Of a stretch of DNA of 64,000 bases, positions 16,217-28,356 are shown piece after piece; the stretch's first letter is position 1; the number at the start of each line of letters is the position of its first letter. Where the stretch lies: the IMG/VR virus record IMGVR_UViG_3300042691_027063, positions 31,648-95,647 of that record; one strand, 5' to 3'. The DNA comes from a virus. The translations under genes and the position numbers were made by a program. The notes beneath the pieces were generated by a model that had not been told where the DNA came from, ran no database searches, and was given only the letters and a program-made list of their open reading frames with translations.

Positions 16217-18070
16217 TTAAACGATTTCGCAAATTCCGCCAGCCGAACAAGCCAATTGTTCTGCGCGATTAGTATTATCTTCGAACTCCATTACCTTTGT
16301 CAAGTCAATTTCGTTAACCATCTTATTATATTTTTCAAAAGTAGCTTTGTCAGTGTCCTCGAAAGGTGCCTGTTGATAAACAGCATCAGAGAAAGGTAGG
16401 AGACTAACAGCAGCATACTGGAAACGATCTTCCCATAGTCGAGCTAGAAGAGTATCAATTTCTTCTGGCTTGTAATTAATAGTGCAGCTTACGTTATGTG
16501 TATTCTCTCCTGATCTGTGACCAGGAAGTACCCAATTATTGTAGTAATGTTTCACTCGATCGAAGAGACTAAGAGCTGACTCTTGATGACGAGTAATTGC
16601 ACCTGCTGGAGATTCCTGTGGGATAGTAACTACAACGCCACTTGGACTAAAAATGTCAGCCTCTACTAGCTCTGGGATAACTTTACTCAAATATCGAGCA
16701 AGTTCATCATCTTTATTCATTCGTACACGACGCAAGTAATACTCACTGTGGCGAGCGTGGATTCCCGAGCTAGACCCAAGAACGCAAGAAGCCGTTCCTT
16801 CAGGCTTAATAGCAGTAGTTCTTGCGGCGATATTGATACCAATTTTGCGGGCATATTTTTCGTTGACTTCAAGTACCGTTCTAGCCGCAGCTTGGAGCTG
16901 ATCGGCAGATAACCCGGGGGAATCCGCGATACCAGTGAAGGAGCAACCAATAAGTGCTTCTTGTTCAGTAACTGTTCTCCATCTTTCTGAAAGATAAGGG
17001 AAATCAGTGAAGCCAGCCTGGAGAGTTCCCAGAAGTGCGGCTGCATATACACGATTGTGAAAGTCTTTGTCATTCTTGATGCCAGTTAGATTTGTAGTGG
17101 TAAGATTGCAGAACTGATTCGATCGAAGACCGATCTCTGCACATGGGTTTGTTCCCCAATCCATATCATTAGTGAATACAAAACCGGGTTCGCCAGCGTT
17201 AGAAGCAATACACATATCAAAAACGTGCTTAAACTCTTCATAAGTAACCTCGTGTCTTGGTAATACTGCACTATTGTTAGCTCTGGCTCTGTGAGGATGA
17301 CGCTCCCACCAGTTACCATGCTTACATGTTAGCATATCATTGTCGTCTCTGTCGAATAAAGCGATAAGTGCTGCTCTACGAATACCTCCAGATAGTACAC
17401 AGTCTGCAATCAGACAAATCATATCGTGAGTTTCTAGAGTTGTTAGCTTTCTTCCTACCGCTTTCTTTAGAATAGCTTCTACTTTTTCAAGCATTGCTTT
17501 AAGAGGCTCAGGTCCAGGAGCTTTTGCTCCAGTAGTTACAAGATAAGAACCCTTCTGACGGACTCTGCTGAAGTCAAATACAGGTCTAATAGCACCGAAT
17601 AGATATGCGGAGATAAGTTGGTTAAGCGATTCAGCCCAGCCTTCAATGGAGTCATGAACAACATAGATTCCTTCCTCTTTTGGTTGACGTACAGTAGGTA
17701 GTTGTCCTACGTGACGTTTTTGTACTGAATATCCAAAGCCAGTTCCTGATAGTAGTAGGAACAAAGCTTCCGCAAAGATACGCGGATATGTAATGTTTGC
17801 AAATGAACAGTTAAATAGTCGGACATTATTTCTAAAGATAGCTTCCCCTCCAAACTGTAGGGAACGCATAGATGGCATTACGTTAAAGTCATGTAGTTGT
17901 TTACCAGCTTTAAGAATATCTCGACTTAGCTTTGGGTATTTATCAAGAAACATATGAAGGTTTCTATTCAATGTTTCTTCTAAAGTCTCTCGTCGATTCA
18001 AATGATTTAAATGTTTAGCGTATGTACGATATGCAACAATTTCTGACAATAGACGATTAGACTTATTCAC
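16217..18070 (-). CDS. nrdJ: class II (adenosylcobalamin-dependent) ribonucleotide reductase
   Basis: PSMRSL, FNCSF, GGIRRAA, TNPCAEI, KPEGT, C-terminal ACSAGGICEI; no beta subunit seen. Confidence 0.9.
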   Translation of the reverse strand: MNKSNRLLSEIVAYRTYAKHLNHLNRRETLEETLNRNLHMFLDKYPKLSRDILKAGKQLHDFNVMPSMRSLQFGGEAIFRNNVRLFNCSFANITYPRIFAEALFLLLSGTGFGYSVQKRHVGQLPTVRQPKEEGIYVVHDSIEGWAESLNQLISAYLFGAIRPVFDFSRVRQKGSYLVTTGAKAPGPEPLKAMLEKVEAILKKAVGRKLTTLETHDMICLIADCVLSGGIRRAALIALFDRDDNDMLTCKHGNWWERHPHRARANNSAVLPRHEVTYEEFKHVFDMCIASNAGEPGFVFTNDMDWGTNPCAEIGLRSNQFCNLTTTNLTGIKNDKDFHNRVYAAALLGTLQAGFTDFPYLSERWRTVTEQEALIGCSFTGIADSPGLSADQLQAAARTVLEVNEKYARKIGINIAARTTAIKPEGTASCVLGSSSGIHARHSEYYLRRVRMNKDDELARYLSKVIPELVEADIFSPSGVVVTIPQESPAGAITRHQESALSLFDRVKHYYNNWVLPGHRSGENTHNVSCTINYKPEEIDTLLARLWEDRFQYAAVSLLPFSDAVYQQAPFEDTDKATFEKYNKMVNEIDLTKVMEFEDNTNRAEQLACSAGGICEIV

Positions 18071-18330: not shown

Positions 18331-18732
18331 TTAGCCATCACCATTACTTAAAAGTTCTTCCATTTTTTTCTTCAAAGCAAGCTCTGATTCTGTTGGACCT
18401 CTAGTGAAATCTTCATCCATGATGATAGTACCCTCTTCTTCTTTCGAAGCTGATTTCTTAACTGGCTTTGGTTTTTCAATATTAACAACGGTTACATTTT
18501 TTCTACTAGCCTCAACCTTAGCTTTCTGTTCCTTCATTTTCTTTTCGTTGTCAAAAGCAGCAGAATAATATTCAATGCTAGAAATTGCTTCTAGTAGCTC
18601 TGCTTTATTGACAACCATACGACCTTGACCTAATCGCAAAAGAAGGAAGTCGGGGTCTTCTGTTACTCGTTGAACAATTACTTCTTCGCCTTCTTCATTT
18701 GTATTAACATAGACAGTTAATTCTTTTCTCAT
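18331..18732 (-). CDS. hypothetical protein
   Basis: 133 aa, GAGGAG SD. Confidence 0.7.
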   Translation of the reverse strand: MRKELTVYVNTNEEGEEVIVQRVTEDPDFLLLRLGQGRMVVNKAELLEAISSIEYYSAAFDNEKKMKEQKAKVEASRKNVTVVNIEKPKPVKKSASKEEEGTIIMDEDFTRGPTESELALKKKMEELLSNGDG

Positions 18733-18924
18733 TTAGTTCTCCTCTATATTTGATTCACATTGAAATTGAACAGAATCCATTTGGTAATCCTCGAACAAAT
18801 GTGGTCCCATAACTACACTTTCTTTTTGTCTTGAAATAGACCAGTCTTTATGAATATTTGTTAAAGAGTTATAGGAAATAAAACAATAATCATATTTAGA
18901 TGTTAGCTGTTGAAATTTAATCAT
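18733..18924 (-). CDS. Q-motif microprotein family member
   Basis: MIKFQQL...YCFISY. Confidence 0.6.
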   Translation of the reverse strand: MIKFQQLTSKYDYCFISYNSLTNIHKDWSISRQKESVVMGPHLFEDYQMDSVQFQCESNIEEN

Positions 18925-19103
18925 TTTGTAACCGCCCTGAAATTAACAAACTCAGAACCTGAATCTGTTTTTTCAATTATATGTCTACCTTCCCAGGAGT
19001 ATCCCTTTTCTGATGTTTTATTTTCCTCTGAAATGTAAATAGCAAAGTTGTAGTGATATTCCGATTTATCGAGTGGCAACATATATTGTGTAATTTCAAT
19101 CAT
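18921..19103 (-). CDS. Q-motif microprotein family member
   Basis: MIEITQY...YNFAIY. Confidence 0.6.
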   Translation of the reverse strand: MIEITQYMLPLDKSEYHYNFAIYISEENKTSEKGYSWEGRHIIEKTDSGSEFVNFRAVTK

Positions 19104-19384
19104 ACTGGATGTCCCATAATATCATCTTCCTCTGTTTCATTATACTCATCTCGATTGACGTTGTAAAGTAAATTCTCATACATCTTATGAATTACTTTAT
19201 TACCATCAATATTCAATACTCTAGAGTTATTTGAATGTGGTTCTAGAATTTCTAAAGGTCTTAAATCATTGAAGTCTTTTACCTTACACTCAGGAAATAG
19301 TTCATTGAATGTTCCAACTGTCTGGACTTCTAAGTTGTCGAACTTATTAATTCTTTCACCAATTGTATAAAATTTAGATTTCAT
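19100..19384 (-). CDS. hypothetical protein
   Basis: 94 aa, AAGGAG SD. Confidence 0.65.
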   Translation of the reverse strand: MKSKFYTIGERINKFDNLEVQTVGTFNELFPECKVKDFNDLRPLEILEPHSNNSRVLNIDGNKVIHKMYENLLYNVNRDEYNETEEDDIMGHPV

Positions 19385-19517
19385 ATTTAAATGCTCCTTT
19401 GTCTAAAAGCCACTCTTGATTTTCAAACTTTTCTTTTTCTATTACTGAAAATTTAAGGTCTATACCTTGCTTTAATAAATTACTTAACCAACTATATCGA
19501 TTTTGAAATAAGATCAT
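19374..19517 (-). CDS. Q-motif microprotein family member (not in ORF track)
   Basis: MILFQNRY...LKFSVI, 47 aa, ATGA overlap. Confidence 0.5.
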   Translation of the reverse strand: MILFQNRYSWLSNLLKQGIDLKFSVIEKEKFENQEWLLDKGAFKYEI

Positions 19518-19744
19518 TTATCAACCTCTTCCTTTTTAGCCTGACATTTGCGACAGGTTATATATTTATTATTACTGAAATAAGAATCTTCGTACCATTC
19601 GTGCTTACATTTAGGAGTTTCTTCTAGTTCAAAATATCCCCAATCATCTGGGTTGATATAGTAAGGATCGTATTCTCTGTCCCACTTAGTACCAGAAAAA
19701 AGCTTTTCAATTTCTTCATCTGTTAGCGTAATTGGTTTATGCAT
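19514..19744 (-). CDS. hypothetical protein with CxH...CxxC zinc motif
   Basis: CKHEW...CRKC. Confidence 0.6.
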   Translation of the reverse strand: MHKPITLTDEEIEKLFSGTKWDREYDPYYINPDDWGYFELEETPKCKHEWYEDSYFSNNKYITCRKCQAKKEEVDK

Positions 19745-19747
19745 ATA

Positions 19748-20311
19748 CTACCTCAATTCATATACATATCGTAATTTTCTTTCTTGTTTTAAAACAGATG
19801 CTTCGCCTTTTTTAATTGCATCTTGAATTCTCTTAGCGTCTTTAGAGTACTCACCATCTTTCTTTTGATATAGCTGTCTAATATGGTAGTATCTATCTCC
19901 CCACTTTACAACCCTAGCATTATTCTTTTCTAAGCCATCGAACTTGAAGTTAGTTGCTTTATATATTGTTCCTTGGTGACCTTTATTTGGATCAGCAAAT
20001 GTTATAACTCTAGTATATCTCTTTTTCTTTAAGTGTCTAAGAGTAGCACCTAGAAAGAAACTCTCTGTGTTCTTCGGGGTATCGTCAATTAAACAGAATC
20101 TACGAAGCTCTAAATCGTTCATGTCACAGTTTGCCCCACAAGGCTGACCATAGATAGCTACCCCACAAAGTTCTCCAAATTCGCTCAACAAAAGAAAAAC
20201 TTCCTTTTGTTTCATTGATCTACAACTCTTAGAGTAATGCCACTTTTCTACAAAGTCAATAGTATTCTTTGAAAGGATCGATCCTACTGGCACGATTTTA
20301 TATCTCATCAA
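19748..20311 (-). CDS. Mom-like DNA adenine modification enzyme (GNAT fold)
   Basis: KWHYS, ELRRFCL, NTESFFL, FADPNKGHQGTIYKATNF. Confidence 0.75.
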   Translation of the reverse strand: MMRYKIVPVGSILSKNTIDFVEKWHYSKSCRSMKQKEVFLLLSEFGELCGVAIYGQPCGANCDMNDLELRRFCLIDDTPKNTESFFLGATLRHLKKKRYTRVITFADPNKGHQGTIYKATNFKFDGLEKNNARVVKWGDRYYHIRQLYQKKDGEYSKDAKRIQDAIKKGEASVLKQERKLRYVYELR

Positions 20312-20484
20312 TCTCCCCAGATTTTTGTATAGCTATCTTTAAATTGATTACTAAAATCTATTGATGCATATCCAGTTGTTCCATTATATCTAGGAAATGA
20401 TGTTATTTCTCCATTCCATGTAATAAAGAAAAGGTCTTGACCACACATATCATTAGTGTTTTTATATTGAGAAATTCTAAGCAT
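20308..20484 (-). CDS. Q-motif microprotein family member
   Basis: MLRISQY...LFFITW; GGAG SD before ATG 20484. Confidence 0.6.
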   Translation of the reverse strand: MLRISQYKNTNDMCGQDLFFITWNGEITSFPRYNGTTGYASIDFSNQFKDSYTKIWGD

Positions 20485-20647
20485 TGAAGTCTCCAATTTC
20501 AACATGATCTAAAAACTTCGAAGACACTGTACTGTGACTTCTAGGAACTCCGTTTTGTAAGTAGTGGAGGATTCCATCTTTTACAAAGTCAAAACAAAGC
20601 TGATCTCTTTGGTTAGGCGTTTTAATATATTGAAGTATTTTAATCAT
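20477..20647 (-). CDS. Q-motif microprotein family member (not in ORF track)
   Basis: MIKILQY...LCFDFV, 56 aa, AGGAG SD. Confidence 0.6.
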   Translation of the reverse strand: MIKILQYIKTPNQRDQLCFDFVKDGILHYLQNGVPRSHSTVSSKFLDHVEIGDFNA

Positions 20648-20798
20648 TGAAGACTCCTATTAGATTATATCCAATTAGCTCATCATATTTATAGTGCATC
20701 GAATAGATAATACCTCTATTTTGATAATAAAGAGTATCACCTATAAGCTTATCAAGCATAAGCTCAAACTGTCCAAAATTGACTTGGATGATCTTCAT
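20640..20798 (-). CDS. Q-motif microprotein family member (not in ORF track)
   Basis: MKIIQVNFGQFELMLDK, 52 aa, AGGA SD. Confidence 0.55.
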   Translation of the reverse strand: MKIIQVNFGQFELMLDKLIGDTLYYQNRGIIYSMHYKYDELIGYNLIGVFND

Positions 20799-20924
20799 TG
20801 TAAGTTCCTGTAATTAATATGATTTTAAATTTTTATTGAAGCGATGTTCATTTTTTACTTGACAGCATTTTCTTGACGTGATATATAACAACTATGCACA
20901 GTATATAATTGAAAGATGGTTGAT

Positions 20925-21119
20925 TTAAGGACAGGTATATTCAAATTTTACTCTTGACTTTGTGAAATATTCTTTATAGTCTGGTCTAGTTATATTTCCT
21001 TCCTCAAAACCATGTATAGTATTTCTACTATACTTAAACCAAATATCCTTTCTCCTTACTATAGTAAAGGAAAGTGAGTTATATCCTACATCGCTACCAT
21101 ACTGAAAAATGTATATCAT
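20925..21119 (-). CDS. Q-motif microprotein family member
   Basis: MIYIFQY...LSFTIV. Confidence 0.6.
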   Translation of the reverse strand: MIYIFQYGSDVGYNSLSFTIVRRKDIWFKYSRNTIHGFEEGNITRPDYKEYFTKSRVKFEYTCP

Positions 21120-21307
21120 TATTTACTCCATATTAAATTATAGAATTTACTTTCTACTATAAAACCAATGGATACATAACATCCGCCTAAGTCCTCTGTT
21201 TTTTTATTAGGATATTTATAAAAACTTCTATCTAATTCCTTATTGTATGAAATAAAACAGAGGTGAAACTCCGAACTTTTACGAACGCACTGATCGAATC
21301 TCATCAT
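21119..21307 (-). CDS. Q-motif microprotein family member
   Basis: MMRFDQC...LCFISY. Confidence 0.6.
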   Translation of the reverse strand: MMRFDQCVRKSSEFHLCFISYNKELDRSFYKYPNKKTEDLGGCYVSIGFIVESKFYNLIWSK

Positions 21308-21536
21308 AAACTTTAACTCCTAATTCCTTGAGTCTAGCTCTACAATTAATCTTAGCTTGCTTTATACTGGAAGCTTGACCTATAATAATTACTGACAAAT
21401 TGTGATCTATAATTCTGTAAGTGAAATCGTTTTGATTTATTAGAGCTTGTAGGATTGTATTTTTAGAGACAATGAATTGCTGAGATGCAAGTATGTTTGG
21501 GGCTTTATCTAAGGGCTTATATTGAATCCTCGTCAT
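21279..21536 (-). CDS. hypothetical protein
   Basis: GGAGG SD before MTRIQY. Confidence 0.6.
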   Translation of the reverse strand: MTRIQYKPLDKAPNILASQQFIVSKNTILQALINQNDFTYRIIDHNLSVIIIGQASSIKQAKINCRARLKELGVKVYDEIRSVRS

Positions 21537-21780
21537 TGTCAAAACCTCCTTCATAGAGTTCAACAAATCTATCTTCACCAACACAGAACAAAACCTTATC
21601 TCTGTTAACAGTTGCGAGATATGCTTGACTTTGTTTTTCAGGTGAATTAACTAGAACTTGCTCAAAAGCAAAGGCTAAACATTCTTCAGCAGATAAAGAT
21701 TTATAAGAGCTATTTAGCTGAATTTCCTCAACTTGATCCTCAATCGCTCTTAATAGTTCCTTTACTTTTTTATTTCTCAT
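21517..21780 (-). CDS. hypothetical protein
   Basis: 87 aa ORF. Confidence 0.6.
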   Translation of the reverse strand: MRNKKVKELLRAIEDQVEEIQLNSSYKSLSAEECLAFAFEQVLVNSPEKQSQAYLATVNRDKVLFCVGEDRFVELYEGGFDNDEDSI

Positions 21781-21836
21781 TTTACCTTGTGGTCATAAAT
21801 AACCAAATCCAGAATATTGGAAATGAAAGATAAAAA

Positions 21837-21865
21837 ATAATACCATAGAAAGCCAAACTTGTCAA
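21837..21865 (-). promoter_or_regulatory. sigma70-type promoter
   Basis: TTGACA-17-TATTAT with extended TG. Confidence 0.6.
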
Positions 21866-21936
21866 GGCATTAGCTACTCTAAATCCAATAATCTTACAAA
21901 AGAAGAGCAAGATAATTGCTCCAGCAATAACGTATC

Positions 21937-22101
21937 TCATTTGATCCTTGTATAAAATATATTATATTCTTTATCATAGCTATAGGAAGCTAGTATTTGT
22001 CCTGTTTTTAATGTACTAACTTTTTCTTGTAAACAAGCAAACTGCAAGCACCATACTGTCTTCTCTTTAGCCATAGCTTTATATTGTTTTATAATAAACA
22101 T
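21937..22101 (-). CDS. Q-motif microprotein family member (not in ORF track)
   Basis: MFIIKQY...LQFACL, 54 aa, TAATG and ATGA coupling. Confidence 0.6.
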   Translation of the reverse strand: MFIIKQYKAMAKEKTVWCLQFACLQEKVSTLKTGQILASYSYDKEYNIFYTRIK

Positions 22102-22421
22102 TAATGCAATCCTTCTTTCTTAGCTGGTTTACTTGGCATATCCAACTCAATTCCAAGTTCACTAGAAAGCTCGTCAAATATATCTTCCGTAAGTTCGATA
22201 AGCTTAATAGGTTCATTCTGCTCACTAATTATATTAGCAAACTCACTTTCAAAAACAGAAAAAGCTTTCTTCATCAAGTCCATAGTTTTATTGTATGGGT
22301 CTTTTTCAAATTCAAGCTCGTCCTCTTTTTCCATAAGCTCGGCGGCTGCATCTGAAAATAATCCAAATGCTTGAGTCATCATTGTGAGAAGAAGTAACTG
22401 TGCTTTTTCTTTATCATTCAT
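22101..22421 (-). CDS. hypothetical acidic protein
   Basis: 106 aa, AGGA SD. Confidence 0.65.
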   Translation of the reverse strand: MNDKEKAQLLLLTMMTQAFGLFSDAAAELMEKEDELEFEKDPYNKTMDLMKKAFSVFESEFANIISEQNEPIKLIELTEDIFDELSSELGIELDMPSKPAKKEGLH

Positions 22422-22586
22422 TGTTTAATCCTAGTGAAGAAGTATGTTTCTTTTTTTCTAAGTCTGCGATGACTTGACCGACCGCTAGTACTCCAGCTAT
22501 AAAGATATTCGTTAAAGTTTTTTCCTTTGTAAAATGTTAAATCTCTGAAATTAAAATCGAAGCTTTTTCTTTGTGCAATTAACATA

Positions 22587-22775
22587 TCAATCCTTTATGT
22601 ATTTAAATTCTCTACAAACTGGTGGTTTCATTATCCAACTATTAATATACCACCAGTTATAAATACTTCTATCATTTTCTACCGATGTTCCGCAATTCCC
22701 AATTAGTAATAAAAACTTAAATCTAATTCTTTCATTTACTCCAATTTCTTTATGGTCGAACTGGTAAATTCTCAT
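22587..22775 (-). CDS. Q-motif microprotein family member
   Basis: MRIYQF...FKFLLL. Confidence 0.6.
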   Translation of the reverse strand: MRIYQFDHKEIGVNERIRFKFLLLIGNCGTSVENDRSIYNWWYINSWIMKPPVCREFKYIKD

Positions 22776-23505
22776 TGATGTACTCCTTCATTGCAACTAC
22801 CCAACGCTGGGCATTATTAGAGTTCAATCCTGGTGCTGAGTTTACTTCACAAACAAAGAAGTTACCATCCTTATCTCGAATCAAATCTACTCCACCAAAT
22901 AATAAACCAAGAGCATTTACTGCATCAATTGCAATTTTTTGACCGACTTCATTACATCGACTTCTTGTAGGATTGACGAGACTAAAGTGGCAGTTATGTG
23001 ACTTGAATAAAGCGGGTCGTTCGTAGTTTTCTTCATTGATATTATTAGGAATCTTTTCGTAAATGGCTACGATCTTGGAATTGAAGACATGAACTCGATA
23101 CTCTCTCCTCTTATTTGGAATTGGCTTAGAGGCATACTGATCTGTTACTGGATTGAAGTCATTACCATAACGAACTTCACCTTGTCTCGATCTGATATAG
23201 TAGTTATTAGTTGTATCTTTTACTGAATCAATGCTAGTTAATTCTGTAGTAAATACAGGCATTGGAATATTTGCAGCAGAAAGTAATTGCATCATTCTTA
23301 GTTTATTGCTAGCGTTTAATACCGCCTCTGCTGTATTAAGTTCTAGTCTAGCTGTAGTCCTATTGAATACCTCAGAGCTACCCCAACGAATAAGAACATC
23401 TAATTTAGCACGACGCTGTGTTTTCTTTCTAGGACAGGAAAGAATCTGACGAAGAAGCTTTCCAGTGTTGGATGATTTAGAATGGTAGGCAATCATTGTT
23501 TTCAT
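22750..23505 (-). CDS. ATP-grasp ligase (RimK-like, phiEco32-type)
   Basis: LIRWG, NASNKL, REYRVHVF, ALGLLFGGVD, EVNSAPGL. Confidence 0.85.
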   Translation of the reverse strand: MKTMIAYHSKSSNTGKLLRQILSCPRKKTQRRAKLDVLIRWGSSEVFNRTTARLELNTAEAVLNASNKLRMMQLLSAANIPMPVFTTELTSIDSVKDTTNNYYIRSRQGEVRYGNDFNPVTDQYASKPIPNKRREYRVHVFNSKIVAIYEKIPNNINEENYERPALFKSHNCHFSLVNPTRSRCNEVGQKIAIDAVNALGLLFGGVDLIRDKDGNFFVCEVNSAPGLNSNNAQRWVVAMKEYINENLPVRP

Positions 23506-23686
23506 TTTTAACCTTCGCTTCTAACTTAGCTGTGAAACTATATCGATGTTTCTCTATCGATTCATTATAGAAATCTTTTTTATTAATCTGTTTGATTAAA
23601 CAAATATGATTAAGAATTCTACCAAAAGACAATTCGTACACAATGAGACGAGAATGGTCTCTCATTTTATACTGAACGATTTCCAT
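23477..23686 (-). CDS. Q-motif microprotein family member
   Basis: MEIVQY...LSFGRI. Confidence 0.6.
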   Translation of the reverse strand: MEIVQYKMRDHSRLIVYELSFGRILNHICLIKQINKKDFYNESIEKHRYSFTAKLEAKVKNENNDCLPF

Positions 23687-23687
23687 A

Positions 23688-23852
23688 TTAGTTCACCTTA
23701 TAAAGTTCAATAAGTTGATCGTCAAAAACCCAACCACTAATACTGTCACATCCAAGACTCCCCCACCTATCATCGTATTTATTTTTAATCCAAAATAATA
23801 ATTGTCTTGGTCTACTATAGAAAGAGTTATTTTTTAATTGACATATCTTCAT
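23688..23852 (-). CDS. Q-motif microprotein family member (not in ORF track)
   Basis: MKICQL...LLFWIK, 54 aa, AAGGA SD. Confidence 0.6.
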   Translation of the reverse strand: MKICQLKNNSFYSRPRQLLFWIKNKYDDRWGSLGCDSISGWVFDDQLIELYKVN

Positions 23853-23854
23853 AT

Positions 23855-25063
23855 TTATCCTTTAGCTTCTCCATAAGCAGAATTAAATACAAATTCAATC
23901 TCATCTACAACATCTTGGAAATCATCGAACTGCCAAGTATCTTGACGAAGATGAGTTGGAAGACATTCATACATATAAGAAAAATTACATCCGAACTCAG
24001 CGTCATACTCATATAGTCGATCGATCAATGGTTCGTCAACGTCATAAAGGAAATCGAAAAGATCGGCGATGTTATAGAACTGTTCTCTTTCTGAGACCTG
24101 CGATAATACCTGAGTCTCTTCTCTCTCTGATTCTTTCTTCGAGGGTTTTGAAGGATTCATTGGTAGAAGGTAAGCTTGACTTTTTTTTTCTGGCTGACTT
24201 GCTTTTCCAGACATACGCTCCCAATCGAATCCGCCGTAGTAATTGCCTCGGCTATTGAGAACCGAATCATTTAGCTGCGTTTGAGAAATAAGCTGACCAG
24301 TTACAGCATTGAATCGGAATAACTTATTTTCTTTAATCATTGATGGTTTTGTAAATTCAAGTCCGAGCTTTGTTGCTGTTGATGTGATGATGTCGGTAGT
24401 CGTTGCCATTACTATTCCGAATCCTTCGATTTGTGAATAATATAACCCCGCATCATTACGAATAACGTCAAGAATGCGAGTGCCGTCAGAGTCCCGAGTA
24501 AGAATACCAAACGCCCAATAACCAGAAAGAGTGTTAAGCCAAGCTTGCGCATTGGAAATATCCTTACCTACGTTATGATTGATATATGATTGCAACGCTG
24601 CCTCTGAATCGCAAGTAGAAATTTTATTAAGTCCAAGTGTAAAAGAGTTACTGATAACTCCGTTATGTACTAGAGAATGATCTGCGTCAACGAATGGGTG
24701 TGTATTGGCGAACTCTTTTCCACAGGTAGCATAACGTGTGTGCATTGTTACTGTCGTAACATTTTCAAATGTCGGAACATCTACACCAAACAAAGAATAG
24801 TTTTGATCGATGTTAGTATATTTAGACAAATGCTTTTTATATGCAAGAAGTTCTTTAGCAATCTTCTCATCTCTAATTGCGTCTCGATCAAAGAACAAAT
24901 CGTTATCATGCCATCGCTCAGTAAAGAAGTTACCATCATTCTTTACTGCACTATAACCAATTCCCATGTTGTTACCAACAGACATTGGAACCTTAGCTTC
25001 TAGCATAAATTTTTCAGTTAGCGATGGATTCTTAAGACCTGTCATAAGTAATAATCGACACAT
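23855..25063 (-). CDS. class II (Ntn) glutamine amidotransferase
   Basis: N-terminal MCR, HTRYAT, NTHPF, HNGVI, CDSE. Confidence 0.85.
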   Translation of the reverse strand: MCRLLLMTGLKNPSLTEKFMLEAKVPMSVGNNMGIGYSAVKNDGNFFTERWHDNDLFFDRDAIRDEKIAKELLAYKKHLSKYTNIDQNYSLFGVDVPTFENVTTVTMHTRYATCGKEFANTHPFVDADHSLVHNGVISNSFTLGLNKISTCDSEAALQSYINHNVGKDISNAQAWLNTLSGYWAFGILTRDSDGTRILDVIRNDAGLYYSQIEGFGIVMATTTDIITSTATKLGLEFTKPSMIKENKLFRFNAVTGQLISQTQLNDSVLNSRGNYYGGFDWERMSGKASQPEKKSQAYLLPMNPSKPSKKESEREETQVLSQVSEREQFYNIADLFDFLYDVDEPLIDRLYEYDAEFGCNFSYMYECLPTHLRQDTWQFDDFQDVVDEIEFVFNSAYGEAKG

Positions 25064-25254
25064 CAATAATTTCCTTTGTTTAATTTGATAATAGATATAA
25101 TTCCATTTCTTAGAGTTATCTTTTGTTTTAAACCATTTGGTTGAAGCATATCATAATCTTTTGATATGACCATACCATTTAAGTATAAAGTAGAAGATGT
25201 AATTTCACTACAAGCGTCAGAATATAGCGGGTCTGGTAGACTGAGAGTCAATAG

Positions 25255-25291
25255 CAGAGTGTTCTGGAATATCTCTACTCCAGAACCTCTG
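25255..25291 (-). other. long hairpin with GAGA tetraloop
   Basis: CAGAG-GTTCTGGAGTA-GAGA-TATTCCAGAAC-A-CTCTG just downstream of the amidoligase stop. Confidence 0.55.
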
Positions 25292-25309
25292 TAATAAAAG
25301 AACTTGATT

Positions 25310-26716
25310 TTAGGCTGCTTCGAACTCTTCGTTGCCGTTCTCATCGATTCGAGATGAAACGTAGTCCATAGCAACTTTAGGGATAGATGGAGCCACCGAA
25401 GAAAGTTCCGTAATTGTCTCCATTTTCTTTGTAATAAGTTGAGCATTGTTCACTACTCCGATAAGAAACTTACACCAGTTAATAATCTGAACACAGTTTA
25501 CTGTACCCTCGTGAACTCGAATCTCAAGAGTTTGGAACTTCTTAAATGCGTGAGTGTTAATAACGCTATATCTTTCAGAATCGTTACGCTCCTGTGTTAC
25601 TTTGAAAGAAGAGTTTTTATTTGGTTTACAGTATGTATTTAGCTGTCTATACTCAGGTTGAGCTTTACGCATTAGACTCATTGTGTTAAACAATGCAGCG
25701 TATGAAGTCTCTGCGTTTCGAGTTCTGTGATCGAGATGAACGTGCAATCCACAAGATCGGTTTACAAGTGCATTGATTTCCTTGTCCCGTAGAACTTTTT
25801 GGATTCGCATTAGGACATTTTCTAGCTCATCTTCCGAGACTAAAACTCGAATTTCGCAAGAGAAATAATTCGGTGCATCTACATTGATCGAACCATCATC
25901 TGTAACATTGACATACTTATGAAGGCGAGCTTCGATGAATTTCTTCTTAAGCTTGTCACGACCACCCTTAACGATACACTCAATCTCGATACCAACATAT
26001 TTTTTATTTGGATCGGAAGGAACTTTGTTTTGCTCAATAAAAGTAACAAGTCCTTGCTCAAAGATTTTACCATAAACATTGGATTCAACATTGATGCCAC
26101 CCAACTTACGAACCTTAACACCTTGAACTTCTTTGACTGTCTCTTTTAGAACATTAGCTCTACGCTGTTCTGTGATAAGAGAGGCAAGGTGCATCTCTAA
26201 CTCTTCTTTTTTGTCAGCTAGAGAAGTCTCAACTTCTACAACTCGCTTGAGCTTATCAACATAAAACTTTGTAGTTGCTGGATTTAGAGCAGATGAGATG
26301 GCGAGTTCAATTTTCTCAATCTCAGCAGCGTTCGCCTTCATTGTCCGACCATTTGGCTTATACTTTAGAGCCAAACGCTCACGCTTTTGACGAAGAAGTG
26401 AAAGCTCTGTTTGCAATTGACTCACATCAATCTTATCTTCAATCTTTCGATAAGCAATGGTTCGTTTACATACAGCAGGTTGACAATCTGCAACTCTGAG
26501 AATTGGATTTCCTTGAACCTCTGGAACATTGAGAACTTCTACCTCAATGATTTCACCATGATAGCTATGCTTATCAGTTCTAAGAACTTTGAAAAGCCAA
26601 TCACGCATAATACCAACATAACCTAGCTGACCGAAATGACCATCTAGTTTGAAATTTTCAGCGAACATAGATGGATTAAGACGGATAACAGAACCAACTT
26701 TAATTTGATTTGACAT
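25310..26716 (-). CDS. putative COOH-NH2 amidoligase (phiEco32-like) with N-terminal coiled coil
   Basis: GIEIE, DDGS, EIR, SCGLHVHLD, RYSVIN, TLEIRVHEGT. Confidence 0.85.
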   Translation of the reverse strand: MSNQIKVGSVIRLNPSMFAENFKLDGHFGQLGYVGIMRDWLFKVLRTDKHSYHGEIIEVEVLNVPEVQGNPILRVADCQPAVCKRTIAYRKIEDKIDVSQLQTELSLLRQKRERLALKYKPNGRTMKANAAEIEKIELAISSALNPATTKFYVDKLKRVVEVETSLADKKEELEMHLASLITEQRRANVLKETVKEVQGVKVRKLGGINVESNVYGKIFEQGLVTFIEQNKVPSDPNKKYVGIEIECIVKGGRDKLKKKFIEARLHKYVNVTDDGSINVDAPNYFSCEIRVLVSEDELENVLMRIQKVLRDKEINALVNRSCGLHVHLDHRTRNAETSYAALFNTMSLMRKAQPEYRQLNTYCKPNKNSSFKVTQERNDSERYSVINTHAFKKFQTLEIRVHEGTVNCVQIINWCKFLIGVVNNAQLITKKMETITELSSVAPSIPKVAMDYVSSRIDENGNEEFEAA

Positions 26717-26792
26717 AGACAATACCTCCGAGTTATGTCAATTATTATTTACATTTTCATTGGAGTCAATACCCCAAATTTTACCTTCATGT

Positions 26793-27206
26793 TCAAGTAC
26801 GTTTTGCTCGAACCATTCTTTTAGTTCTTGCTCTGATTTTCTTTCGAGTTCGAGTTGAAGAAATAGATTTAATTTCCATACCTTTTTTGACTGGAACACT
26901 TTTGATTCTTCCATTTTTCCTCATCTCTACTGGGATTGTTATTTGATTAATAAATTCAATACAATTGGTCGGTATGCTATGAATAGCATTTATGTTATAT
27001 TTATTTGAGAAAAAAGAAGGAGTCAATCTACCTAGAGTCATAATCTCAATAGGAATATCTTCACCTTCCTCGTCATCCCAAATTTCATCTGTATAAGTAT
27101 CGTTTCTTTTAATATAAAACTCAAGTTCTTTATTAGGAGAAACTCCACCATATAACTCATCACAAGTAGACTCATCAAGTATCTGAGCTAGAGTTATTTT
27201 TTCCAT
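26793..27206 (-). CDS. hypothetical protein (N-terminus resembles the Q-motif family)
   Basis: ITLAQ...LEFYI; basic C-terminus. Confidence 0.6.
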   Translation of the reverse strand: MEKITLAQILDESTCDELYGGVSPNKELEFYIKRNDTYTDEIWDDEEGEDIPIEIMTLGRLTPSFFSNKYNINAIHSIPTNCIEFINQITIPVEMRKNGRIKSVPVKKGMEIKSISSTRTRKKIRARTKRMVRAKRT

Positions 27207-27396
27207 TTAAATCTCCAGTATAAAAAGTGAATCTATTTGGCTCATCTTCTGTTGCATTTTTTAGTTTACGTTCTTGTTTAATTGGTGTTTTTCTTCCTTC
27301 ATCTTTCCAAGTATAATAGTCACTTAGTACACATCTAAATTTAAGATGTGCTCCTTTTACCCAACTTTTATCATCCTTGTATTGAGCTATCTTCAT
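27175..27396 (-). CDS. Q-motif microprotein family member
   Basis: MKIAQY...LKFRCV. Confidence 0.6.
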   Translation of the reverse strand: MKIAQYKDDKSWVKGAHLKFRCVLSDYYTWKDEGRKTPIKQERKLKNATEDEPNRFTFYTGDLNGKNNSSSDT

Positions 27397-27598
27397 TTTT
27401 TAACCCTTTAAGATTATACCTAAAGTCAGATTTTTCCGTATAAATGTACATACCAGACGAGACTAACATCGTCTTTTTGCTTTCACAATTATACCAAGTT
27501 CCTTTTTTGTGATCTTTATTTATAACAATCACATTAAATCCTAAATGCGATTGCCAAATATATTTTCCGTCGATCGGAGTTTGATCGAAGTAAATCAT
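27371..27598 (-). CDS. Q-motif microprotein family member
   Basis: MIYFDQT...LGFNVI; AGGAGG SD. Confidence 0.65.
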   Translation of the reverse strand: MIYFDQTPIDGKYIWQSHLGFNVIVINKDHKKGTWYNCESKKTMLVSSGMYIYTEKSDFRYNLKGLKNEDSSIQG

Positions 27599-27611
27599 AA
27601 TCCTCCTAAAT

Positions 27612-27695
27612 AGTGACGAGCCGTCACCTCACAACTACTTTCCTGTCATCCAACAACAGAGGTCAGTAACCTTACGAGTTAGGTATGTGACACCT
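27612..27695 (-). ncRNA. repeated structured RNA motif, copy 2 with 45-nt insert
   Basis: AGGTGTCACATACC-[45 nt]-AGTTGTGAGGTG plus hairpin GTGAC/GTCAC. Confidence 0.5.
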
Positions 27696-27706
27696 AGCAT
27701 TTTATA

Positions 27707-27970
27707 TTAGGCTTTCAGCTTCTCAGTAGAAAGCTTGTCCGCATTTTCATTAATAAAATCGGCTAACTCAGGAGCCGAAAAAAGATCAGCTAACTTTTGA
27801 GCTTGATTAACATACAAGCTAACTGGAAATCTTGAGTTCAATCCGTAGATAAGAAGGTTCCCTTTATCACCTACCTTAACAGTCAATCCTCCGATTCTCT
27901 TAGTTGGAATCAAAGCCTTCATTTCCTTGAGCTTTGCTTCTAGTGCCTTGATTTCTTCTTTAGTTGTCAT
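27707..27970 (-). CDS. small putative nucleic-acid-binding protein
   Basis: LTVKVGDKGNLLIYGLNSRFPVSLY resembles a widespread KVSxKG..VYGL.RFPVTLY family; AAGGAG SD. Confidence 0.55.
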   Translation of the reverse strand: MTTKEEIKALEAKLKEMKALIPTKRIGGLTVKVGDKGNLLIYGLNSRFPVSLYVNQAQKLADLFSAPELADFINENADKLSTEKLKA

Positions 27971-28175
27971 TTTCTTTCTCCTTTTTTTCAAAGCGAAATC
28001 TGCTTTGATTGTATTGATTAACAAATAAATAGTTATCTATTCCATTCGGACAATTAACTTTCTCAAATAGGTTAGTTCTATATTTAGAATTAACGTCTAT
28101 ACAAACAAATAGCAACGAAGATTTTTCATCTGCCCATCCATCTGGTATCCTCTGTTTTAAAATCATGTGATTCAT
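27960..28175 (-). CDS. Q-motif microprotein family member
   Basis: (MNH)MILKQR...LLFVCI. Confidence 0.55.
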   Translation of the reverse strand: MNHMILKQRIPDGWADEKSSLLFVCIDVNSKYRTNLFEKVNCPNGIDNYLFVNQYNQSRFRFEKKEKENDN

Positions 28176-28356
28176 TTTTACCTCTAGTTGAAGCAATAAA
28201 ATCTGTTAAGTAGCTTCTTGAGTCTCTATAACCATTTTTATTAAATATCCCCCAAGGTCTTGAACAAAAAGATTTATCCTTTTCATCAAAATCAAAGCCA
28301 AAGTTATAATTAGCATTAGCGTCGTTTCTAGTTCCGAATTGGTATATTTTAAACAT
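28126..28356 (-). CDS. Q-motif microprotein family member
   Basis: MFKIYQF...FGFDFD. Confidence 0.55.
   Translation of the reverse strand: MFKIYQFGTRNDANANYNFGFDFDEKDKSFCSRPWGIFNKNGYRDSRSYLTDFIASTRGKNESHDFKTEDTRWMGR

Follow-up and report, generated by a model that had tools for sequence, protein, structure and literature searches.

The window analysed here is a stretch of 64,000 nucleotides (bases 31648-95647) from one 95.6-kb virus record, IMGVR_UViG_3300042691_027063, and all positions below are counted from its first letter. Between positions 18733 and 28356 it carries 17 small genes whose products start with a hydrophobic-x-Q signature followed by [LYF]-x-F, and which we refer to as the Q-motif family. 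An earlier note on this DNA had quoted the N-termini of 16 such open reading frames (ORFs), all of which are present, on the minus strand; the 17th, at 22418-22585 (MLIAQRKSFDFNF), was overlooked there and emerged from a pattern scan of all ATG-initiated ORFs of the genome. The note's estimate of about 16 members was slightly low, in view of the 17 motif-bearing genes, and at the same time slightly generous, as three of these were not recovered by a profile hidden Markov model (HMM) rebuilt without any sequence of this genome (the external HMM), with which all 317 ORFs of the 95.6-kb record were scored. The members are as follows, ranks being those among the 317 ORFs and SD standing for Shine-Dalgarno sequence.

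c1, 18733..18924, minus strand: 63 amino acids, MIKFQQL...YCFISYN; external-HMM rank 8 of 317; overlaps c2 by 4 nt
c2, 18921..19103, minus strand: 60 amino acids, MIEITQY...YNFAIY; external HMM 10.5 bits, E 0.032, rank 5
c3 (borderline), 19374..19517, minus strand: 47 amino acids, MILFQNR...LKFSVI; external-HMM rank 14, individually non-significant; good SD
c4, 20308..20484, minus strand: 58 amino acids from an internal ATG, MLRISQY...LFFITW; external-HMM rank 21
c5, 20477..20647, minus strand: 56 amino acids, MIKILQY...LCFDFV...VEIGDFNA; external HMM E 0.037, rank 6
c6 (borderline), 20640..20798, minus strand: 52 amino acids, MKIIQV..., with LYY instead of x-F as second motif; external-HMM rank 16, internal start only
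c7, 20925..21119, minus strand: 64 amino acids, MIYIFQY...LSFTIV; external-HMM rank 10; GGAG SD
c8, 21119..21307, minus strand: 62 amino acids, MMRFDQC...LCFISYN; motif present, outside the top 32 of the external HMM
c9, 21937..22101, minus strand: 54 amino acids, MFIIKQY...LQFACL; motif only, outside the top 32 of the external HMM
c17, 22418..22585, minus strand: 55 amino acids, MLIAQRKSFDFNF; external-HMM rank 17, 12.4 bits with the full family HMM
c10, 22587..22775, minus strand: 62 amino acids, MRIYQF...RFKFLL; external HMM E 0.0052, rank 3; start overlaps the end of the ATP-grasp gene
c11, 23477..23686, minus strand: 69 amino acids, MEIVQY...LSFGRI; external-HMM rank 7; end overlaps the ATP-grasp start by 29 nt
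c12, 23688..23852, minus strand: 54 amino acids, MKICQL...LLFWIK...LIELYKVN; external HMM 20.2 bits, E 2.8e-5, rank 1 of 317 (the best)
c13, 27175..27396, minus strand: 73 amino acids, MKIAQY...LKFRCV...FTFYTG; external HMM E 0.0046, rank 2
c14, 27371..27598, minus strand: 75 amino acids, MIYFDQT...LGFNVI; motif plus a strong AGGAGG SD, outside the top 32 of the external HMM
c15, 27960..28166, minus strand: 68 amino acids, MILKQR...LLFVCI; external-HMM rank 11
c16, 28126..28356, minus strand: 76 amino acids, MFKIYQF...FGFDFD; external HMM E 0.018, rank 4; 27 bits with the full family HMM

Two of these starts call for comment. The motif of c4 is read from an internal ATG at 20484, with GGAGACTTCA immediately upstream, and the start is uncertain in that the ORF could begin at 20505; the true start of c15 is probably the ATG at 28175 (MNHMILKQ), three codons upstream, as the SD favours that ATG.

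Scored as N-terminal hydrophobic-x-Q followed by [LYF]-x-F, the pattern occurred in 14 of the 23 small genes of the segment 18733-28368 (crude gene calls). The rest of the 95.6-kb genome had it in 1 of 51 small genes and 1 of 68 large ones (Fisher p 1e-11), and among ORFs that were off-frame or antisense 3 of 154 matched. The enrichment over other small ORFs that the earlier note had anticipated was thereby borne out, and it recurred in the related loci described below, where, of the small ORFs sharing the strand of the glutamine amidotransferase gene, 71 of 650 had the pattern, versus 6 of 360 of those facing the other way (p 8e-9); after shuffling, the ORFs gave 7.5 +/- 2.6 matches, so that the motif is far commoner than in shuffled sequence. 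At the conserved positions, codons vary synonymously (ATT/ATA/ATC; CAA/CAG; TAT/TAC/TTC), which places the constraint on the protein and not on the DNA, and on the same grounds we rejected a DNA-level element at gene starts. The remainder of the proteins was indeed unalignable in pairwise comparison, as had been noted by eye, with only c1 and c8 reaching E 0.04, via a common CFISYN. A leave-one-out HMM placed 14 of 16 candidates in the top 2%, a test biased by the set having been picked by motif. With the external HMM, built from other phages, window candidates occupied ranks 1-8, and 14 of the 17 fell into the top 21 of 317 (hypergeometric p 8e-17); six of them (c12, c13, c10, c16, c2, and c5) were individually significant at E<0.05, with eight more within the top 21. 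For c8, c9, and c14, assignment to the family would follow from the short motif and, in the case of c8, the similarity to c1. That the window encodes a real, expanded family of translated small proteins is in our view highly probable. The full family HMM also gave 16 bits to an ORF of 64 amino acids (MCLIKRPSVDKEED...KFKYEY; window coordinates -4479..-4285, minus strand) in which the Gln motif is missing; this is probably either a degenerate member or a false positive.

Relatives were found by anchoring on the neighbouring class-II glutamine amidotransferase (GATase; 23855-25066), which has hundreds of metagenomic homologues. While a locus search with the single GATase sequence retrieved no loci, an alignment of 15 GATase homologues (A1) used as query retrieved 8 IMG/VR and 31 metagenome loci; the loci compared leave out the contigs of the closest GATase relatives (54-62% identity; P0015-P0018, P0022 at 62%). 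Iterative HMM searches seeded with the 17 window proteins, the threshold always exceeding the score of the best opposite-strand ORF, settled at about 105 members in 16 loci, and some 95 further small genes with the signature were present in related phage contigs. Member counts per locus were highest in L004 (17), L005 (15), and L017 (14), and this phage and its metagenomic relatives carry about 7-17 copies each. Motif residues were kept across phages whose GATases are only 36-40% identical. Ten window proteins that were looked up are recorded solely from this phage (6-9 contigs), together with a few near-identical variants. The phage itself belongs to an uncultured lineage with no cultured relative at hand, as judged from its large terminase (TerL), for which the best match among GenBank phages is only 28% identical, and from a megablast of the region that gave no nucleotide match among GenBank phages. 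Judged by these loci, a deep, uncultured clade of metagenome phages with genomes of 80-96 kb has conserved the family.

The consensus was derived from a clade-wide alignment, with column statistics over 105 members. Block 1 reads M-[IK]-[IL]-x-Q (also M-[IL]-[IL]-x-Q), with the Gln in 94% of sequences, and is followed, after a loop of about 5-16 residues, by block 2, [RK]-[YF]-x-F-x-[IL], with the Phe in 90%. A variable middle, frequently with G-[YW], leads to block 3, an aromatic residue ([FY], 81%) plus a C-terminal strand [LF]-E-[LF]-[IV]-x-[ED], which by eye is discernible in nearly all 17 window members (e.g., LIELYKVN, FTFYTG, FKYIKD, and NLIWSK). Since block 3 was absent from the search pattern, it lends independent support to homology over the full length. 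The median member length is 55 amino acids (range about 45-75), the loops between the blocks are hypervariable in length, sequence, and charge, and the pI ranges from 4.8 to 10.5. Relative to the large proteins of the same loci, Trp, Tyr, and Phe are about twice as frequent and Ala is reduced to one third.

Several lines of evidence identify the members as protein-coding genes on which selection is purifying but relaxed. An SD-like 4-mer is located 4-18 nt upstream of 90 of 111 family starts, compared with 20% of other ATGs; 31 of 95 pairs of consecutive members abut, 12 of them with an ATGA overlap; four orthologue pairs from a single pair of phages (L001 versus L002) gave dN/dS values of 0.31, 0.22, 0.41, and 0.70, the adjoining GATase having 0.08 and a dN 10-25 times below that of the microproteins; and natural variants keep the blocks. 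Of the latter, a c5 variant from another sample is 93% identical and changed in the middle only, and c13 variants are about 80-85% identical; in both cases the differences lie in the loops and all three blocks are kept. Family genes are also AT-richer than the adjoining enzyme genes (GC 0.30 versus 0.39; GC3 0.25 versus 0.30).

The translational coupling and look-alike junctions that had been pointed out, GGAGACTTCAATG and GGAGTCTTCAATG, were likewise confirmed, and the likeness of the junctions has a simple cause: in some members the codons of a G-D/V-F-N tail, GGAGAYTTYAATG, double as SD, spacer, and ATG of the next gene. The two junctions of the window are:

20482..20494, minus strand: GGAGACTTCAATG, in which the last c5 codons (G-D-F-N) provide SD, spacer, and ATG of c4
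20645..20657, minus strand: GGAGTCTTCAATG, in which the last c6 codons (G-V-F-N; GVFND) provide SD, spacer, and ATG of c5

The GGAGAYTTYAATG / G-D-F-N tail is also found in two other phages, at L014:788-817, where the next gene is the GATase, and at L005:4939-4968. As such dual-coded tails supply the SD and ATG of the following gene, each unit is, as far as can be judged from the sequence, a self-contained, translationally coupled insert.

Among 111 members, BLASTP detected only 16 of 6105 possible pairs, and these were L001/L002 orthologues or mostly adjacent paralogues. The adjacency of the detectable paralogues points to tandem duplication followed by very fast divergence, and, together with the roughly 105 members brought under one HMM, it substantiates the expanded paralogue repertoire proposed in the earlier note. 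All genes involved lie in a compact block together with the following neighbours:

16217-18070: ribonucleotide reductase (RNR) gene
18331-18732, minus strand: p133, small early protein without Pfam match
19100-19384, minus strand: p94, small early protein without Pfam match
19748-20311, minus strand: Mom family protein of 187 amino acids (PF25680, E 7e-31), adenine methylcarbamoylation-type DNA modification
21279-21536, minus strand: p85, small early protein without Pfam match
21517-21780, minus strand: p87, small early protein without Pfam match
22750-23505, minus strand: RimK-like ATP-grasp protein of a phiEco32-type cassette
23855-25066, minus strand: class-II GATase of the same cassette
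25310-26722, minus strand: Amidoligase_2 of the same cassette
27707-28024, minus strand: p105, small early protein

In the clade, the gene order is p105, amidoligase, GATase, 1-4 members, ATP-grasp, members, (p87, p85, Mom), p94, p133, and RNR, with members also before the amidoligase and between p94, p133, and RNR; they stand singly or in short runs among the conserved genes. The junction between GATase and ATP-grasp is particularly instructive, as it holds 0, 1, 2, 3, or 4 members in different relatives; in the window it is occupied by c12, which starts 2 nt past the GATase stop, and c11, and most loci that span the slot carry 1-4 members there. The comparisons of dN/dS and of presence and absence in related phages that the earlier note had called for yielded, in sum, values of 0.2-0.7 and this variable occupancy of the same junction.

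Genes in the window run on the minus strand from about 31.4 kb leftward past the window start and rightward beyond about 31.4 kb. The microprotein stretch (18.7-28.4 kb) lies 3-13 kb downstream of this divergent intergenic region and upstream of RNR; because of this position, we infer that it forms the early part of a leftward transcription unit. The Q-motif genes account for 17 of about 142 crude gene calls of the 96-kb phage, about one gene in eight, and members are confined to the leftward strand, from the divergent intergenic region to the RNR gene. Of the relatives, four near-complete or partial records of 82-87 kb were scanned whole, and here too members were found solely in the same block, so placement is conserved along with the family.

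As to structure, hydrophobic residues alternate in the conserved blocks in the manner of beta-strands. AlphaFold2 (AF2) was run with the family alignment on c12 and on a canonical member, L004:10412-10579. For c12, the mean pLDDT was 58, with strands at residues 2-5 and 20-23; for the canonical member, it was 65, with strands at 2-5, 16-19, 33-35, and 38-40. The N-terminal hairpin is the sole consistent element of both models, and neither contains a helix. The constant docking hairpin postulated by the earlier note was upheld in so far as an N-terminal hairpin is modelled with moderate confidence (strands 2-5 and 16-23, pLDDT about 70), but not in its restriction to the N-terminus, as conservation reaches the C-terminal block. 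Because the third block, at the far end, is conserved as well, we favour a fold core over a detachable handle; the conserved blocks are probably the heart of a small all-beta scaffold and not simply a tag at the N-terminus. Searches with the AF2 models in Foldseek (PDB, BFVD) and VIA-align wide returned chance-level rows only; given models as weak as these, that result should not be taken as evidence of a new fold. Two motif-based interpretations were tried and rejected. A beta-clamp or PIP-box motif starting from the Gln fails because the downstream hydrophobic positions are not conserved (by eye), and an outer-membrane-protein beta-signal or a RimK-type acidic C-terminus fails because the C-terminal residues are inconsistent.

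Sequence databases contributed little to functional assignment. The 17 window proteins had no match in Pfam or PHROGs; 111 members searched against Pfam-A, PHROGs v4, NCBIfam, and PADLOC gave only single chance-level matches to unrelated models (best E 0.005-0.01); the family profile had 0 matches among PDB sequences at E<=10; and the ESM Atlas yielded no usable match. A database-wide search with profile A3 (1.84 billion representatives) returned three matches at E<=0.001, of which two were training-like and one was a spurious repeat. This search is uninformative on how widely the family is spread, because the profile is short and divergent and true members score just about 12-30 bits with family profiles, too low at that scale. 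The spurious match, P0134 (E 1.5e-5), is a 462-amino-acid protein of eight identical repeats of about 57 amino acids, apparently a translated tandem repeat and not a relative.

The enzyme genes among which the members lie make up a phiEco32-type amidoligase/GATase/ATP-grasp cassette (22750-26722). In phiEco32-type phages the same three enzymes are normally contiguous, whereas here and in at least 12 related loci the cassette is split by Q-motif genes, an arrangement encountered only in this clade; in three more distant loci (L006, L007, and L008) the cassette is present and contiguous, without any family member. The GATase has a C-terminal extension of about 120 amino acids (residues ~280-403; 23855-24230, minus strand), consisting of a variable linker and a conserved acidic domain. 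Among loci L001-L019, it occurs in exactly those that have the family, whereas GATases of loci without the family match residues 1-260/308 only, and could be either a clade marker or a functional link. As a separate observation, a tblastn search of GenBank phages with the GATase gave no match, while the adjoining ATP-grasp protein matched 198 phage records.

Our best overall explanation, to which we assign an even chance, is that of an early, lineage-specific tandem family of proteins with an all-beta scaffold and variable loops that serve as host-binding effectors. The genes would sit in the presumed early transcription unit, from its start to the nucleotide-metabolism genes, and the family would grow by local tandem duplication, new copies being slotted into gene junctions as self-contained coupled units and then diverging very fast. 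The three constant segments (N-terminal strand, second strand, and aromatic residue plus C-terminal strand [LF]-x-[LF]-[IV]) would make up a tiny all-beta core, on which freely varying loops would present different binding surfaces, resulting in a repertoire of early accessory effectors, each for a different host protein with a role in defence or housekeeping. The functional part of this proposal, that members act as diversified host-directed binders, is tentative and rated by us a little short of even. Several points weigh against the explanation as a whole. The AF2 models are of low confidence and leave the C-terminal strand unpaired in the monomer, so that a single scaffold is a conjecture; a polar Gln that hardly varies is not what one would expect of a residue with a purely structural task and may instead mark a shared functional site; no homologue with known function and no known anti-defence family was matched in Pfam, PHROGs, NCBIfam, PADLOC, or PDB. 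The failure of the external HMM to recover c8, c9, and c14 and the small base of the dN/dS values, four short genes from one pair of phages, have to be kept in mind as well, and every related locus was reached through the GATase gene, so the distribution of the family has been sampled via one anchor.

Other explanations have to be considered against this background. An artefact, in which the motif would arise from AT-rich start regions or from by-eye choice of ORFs, with no family or no translation behind it, would fit the essentially undetectable pairwise similarity, the database-wide profile search that gave nothing beyond training-like sequences, and the three candidates failing the external HMM. 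The enrichment, strand, and shuffle controls, the SD upstream of starts, dN/dS values below 1, and a third conserved block outside the selection criteria have largely refuted it, and we attach next to no credence to it. A more serious contender takes the N-terminal strand or hairpin, with its Gln, as a common handle that docks all members on one partner, such as a phage or host machine or the prohead, with the rest as variable cargo. The 94% conservation of the Gln amid almost general variability and the hairpin as the only confidently modelled part speak for it, and there is a precedent in the T-even internal proteins, diverse anti-restriction proteins that have only a capsid-targeting sequence in common (PMC3012670). 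Conservation that extends to a distal aromatic residue and a C-terminal strand, the lack of any conserved Glu or protease-type cleavage site after the motif, and the position of the genes in the presumed early block, away from the head genes, make a common handle unlikely in our view. The units might, alternatively, be self-propagating mini-cassettes that persist by easy duplication and insertion, single copies adding little function. Their architecture invites this thought: each has its own start overlapping the upstream stop and last codons that give the SD and ATG of the next gene, 0-4 copies occupy the same junction among relatives, three phages have the dual-coded GDFN / GGAGAYTTYAATG tails, the genes exceed their neighbours in AT content, and their dN is 10-25 times that of the GATase, with one pair at a dN/dS of 0.70. 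Persistence by propagation as the main cause is nevertheless improbable to us in view of dN/dS values below 1 in 4 of 4 pairs, motif residues kept across phages with strongly diverged GATases, conservation at the level of protein and not of DNA ends, and the lack of any recombinase or repeat associated with the units.

The interleaving with the cassette suggests yet another possibility, namely that the Q-motif proteins are its substrates or carriers, with the Gln as deamidation or ligation site, or the C-terminus, being deamidated, amidated, or extended by amidoligase, GATase, and ATP-grasp protein; the GATase extension would then be the docking domain and the 10-17 variable members the substrates of a protein tag or a system resembling ribosomally synthesized and post-translationally modified peptides (RiPPs). 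Here, as in at least 12 related loci, members sit between the three enzyme genes, in at least 8 loci one member overlaps the ATP-grasp start, in keeping with the RiPP/graspetide rule of a precursor adjacent to its modifying enzyme, and the GATase extension is found in exactly the family-bearing loci. The passage of PMC10580990 that cites Iyer et al. 2009 gives the cassette's target as unknown, which leaves room for such substrates. The obligatory co-occurrence and fixed core typical of RiPPs and graspetides are not seen, however: L006, L007, and L008 have the cassette without any member, many members fill junctions far from it, as far as RNR, and the variable part of the members showed no fixed Ser/Thr/Asp/Glu pattern. 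Moreover, the ATP-grasp protein alone matches the 198 phage records mentioned above, the C-terminal chemistry of the members is not conserved, and the correlation with the GATase extension may simply reflect shared ancestry. We consider a substrate role very improbable.

The Q-motif family and its interleaved arrangement are, on present comparison, new, although known systems offer partial parallels. The T-even internal proteins are likewise small phage proteins of great diversity that keep a brief constant peptide at the N-terminus and are regarded as a diversified repertoire against the host; they are anti-restriction proteins with a common capsid-targeting sequence of about 10 residues that is cut by the prohead protease (PMC3012670). 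What they share is only this cleavable tag, whereas the Q-motif family is conserved in mid-protein and C-terminally too; the columns after the Gln are variable and contain no conserved Glu, so that the prohead-protease site [LI]-x-E expected after such a tag is missing, and the Q-motif genes are part of the presumed early block. The two groups have no sequence similarity apart from what may be a loose M-K-x-Y-Q resemblance. A second parallel is provided by the hyperplastic regions of T4-type phages, in which Arbiol, Comeau and Krisch (in 2010) reportedly described PeSL cassettes, unrelated ORFs bounded by conserved promoter and stem-loop DNA. Common to both are many tiny orphan genes amid conserved early genes and rapid gain and loss between relatives. 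Q-motif ORFs, in contrast, are mutually homologous, follow one another with no intergenic DNA between them, and have their conservation in the protein. No conserved promoter or stem-loop element was found around the ORFs: the genes abut or overlap, and a promoter/terminator scan, uninformative in itself, gave 42 promoter-like sites, fewer than in shuffled sequence (57.8). The multigene families (MGF) of African swine fever virus (ASFV) and the 'genomic accordions' of poxviruses arise by tandem duplication and rapid divergence of host-interaction genes, with strain-variable copy number. They resemble the present case in that one gene family undergoes tandem duplication followed by rapid divergence, but, unlike the Q-motif genes, they encode far larger proteins whose folds and immune targets are known.

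Tiny orphans of early regions are usually dismissed singly, and here 17 of them belong to one previously unrecognised family. If the scaffold with variable loops holds true, the family would be a natural library of miniature binders of host proteins, a compact source of anti-defence and host-takeover candidates, and a phage counterpart of the 'genomic accordions'. Database-wide searches miss families of this kind, which have to be sought from genes next to them. That the members split the amidoligase cassette offers a cheap, testable lead on the target of that cassette; should the substrate role apply after all, the phage would encode a protein-tagging or RiPP-like system.

Some observations concern the neighbours of the Q-motif genes. 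The ORF at 21279-21536 (MTRIQYK) was considered as an 18th member and rejected, as it belongs to the separate conserved family p85. Homologues of p133, p94, p85, p87, and p105 are each present in at least two related loci, with gene order kept, and all five are distinct from the Q-motif family; the Pfam scan covered four of them (p133, p94, p85, and p87). The Mom gene is situated inside the microprotein-rich block and has a homologue in L004.

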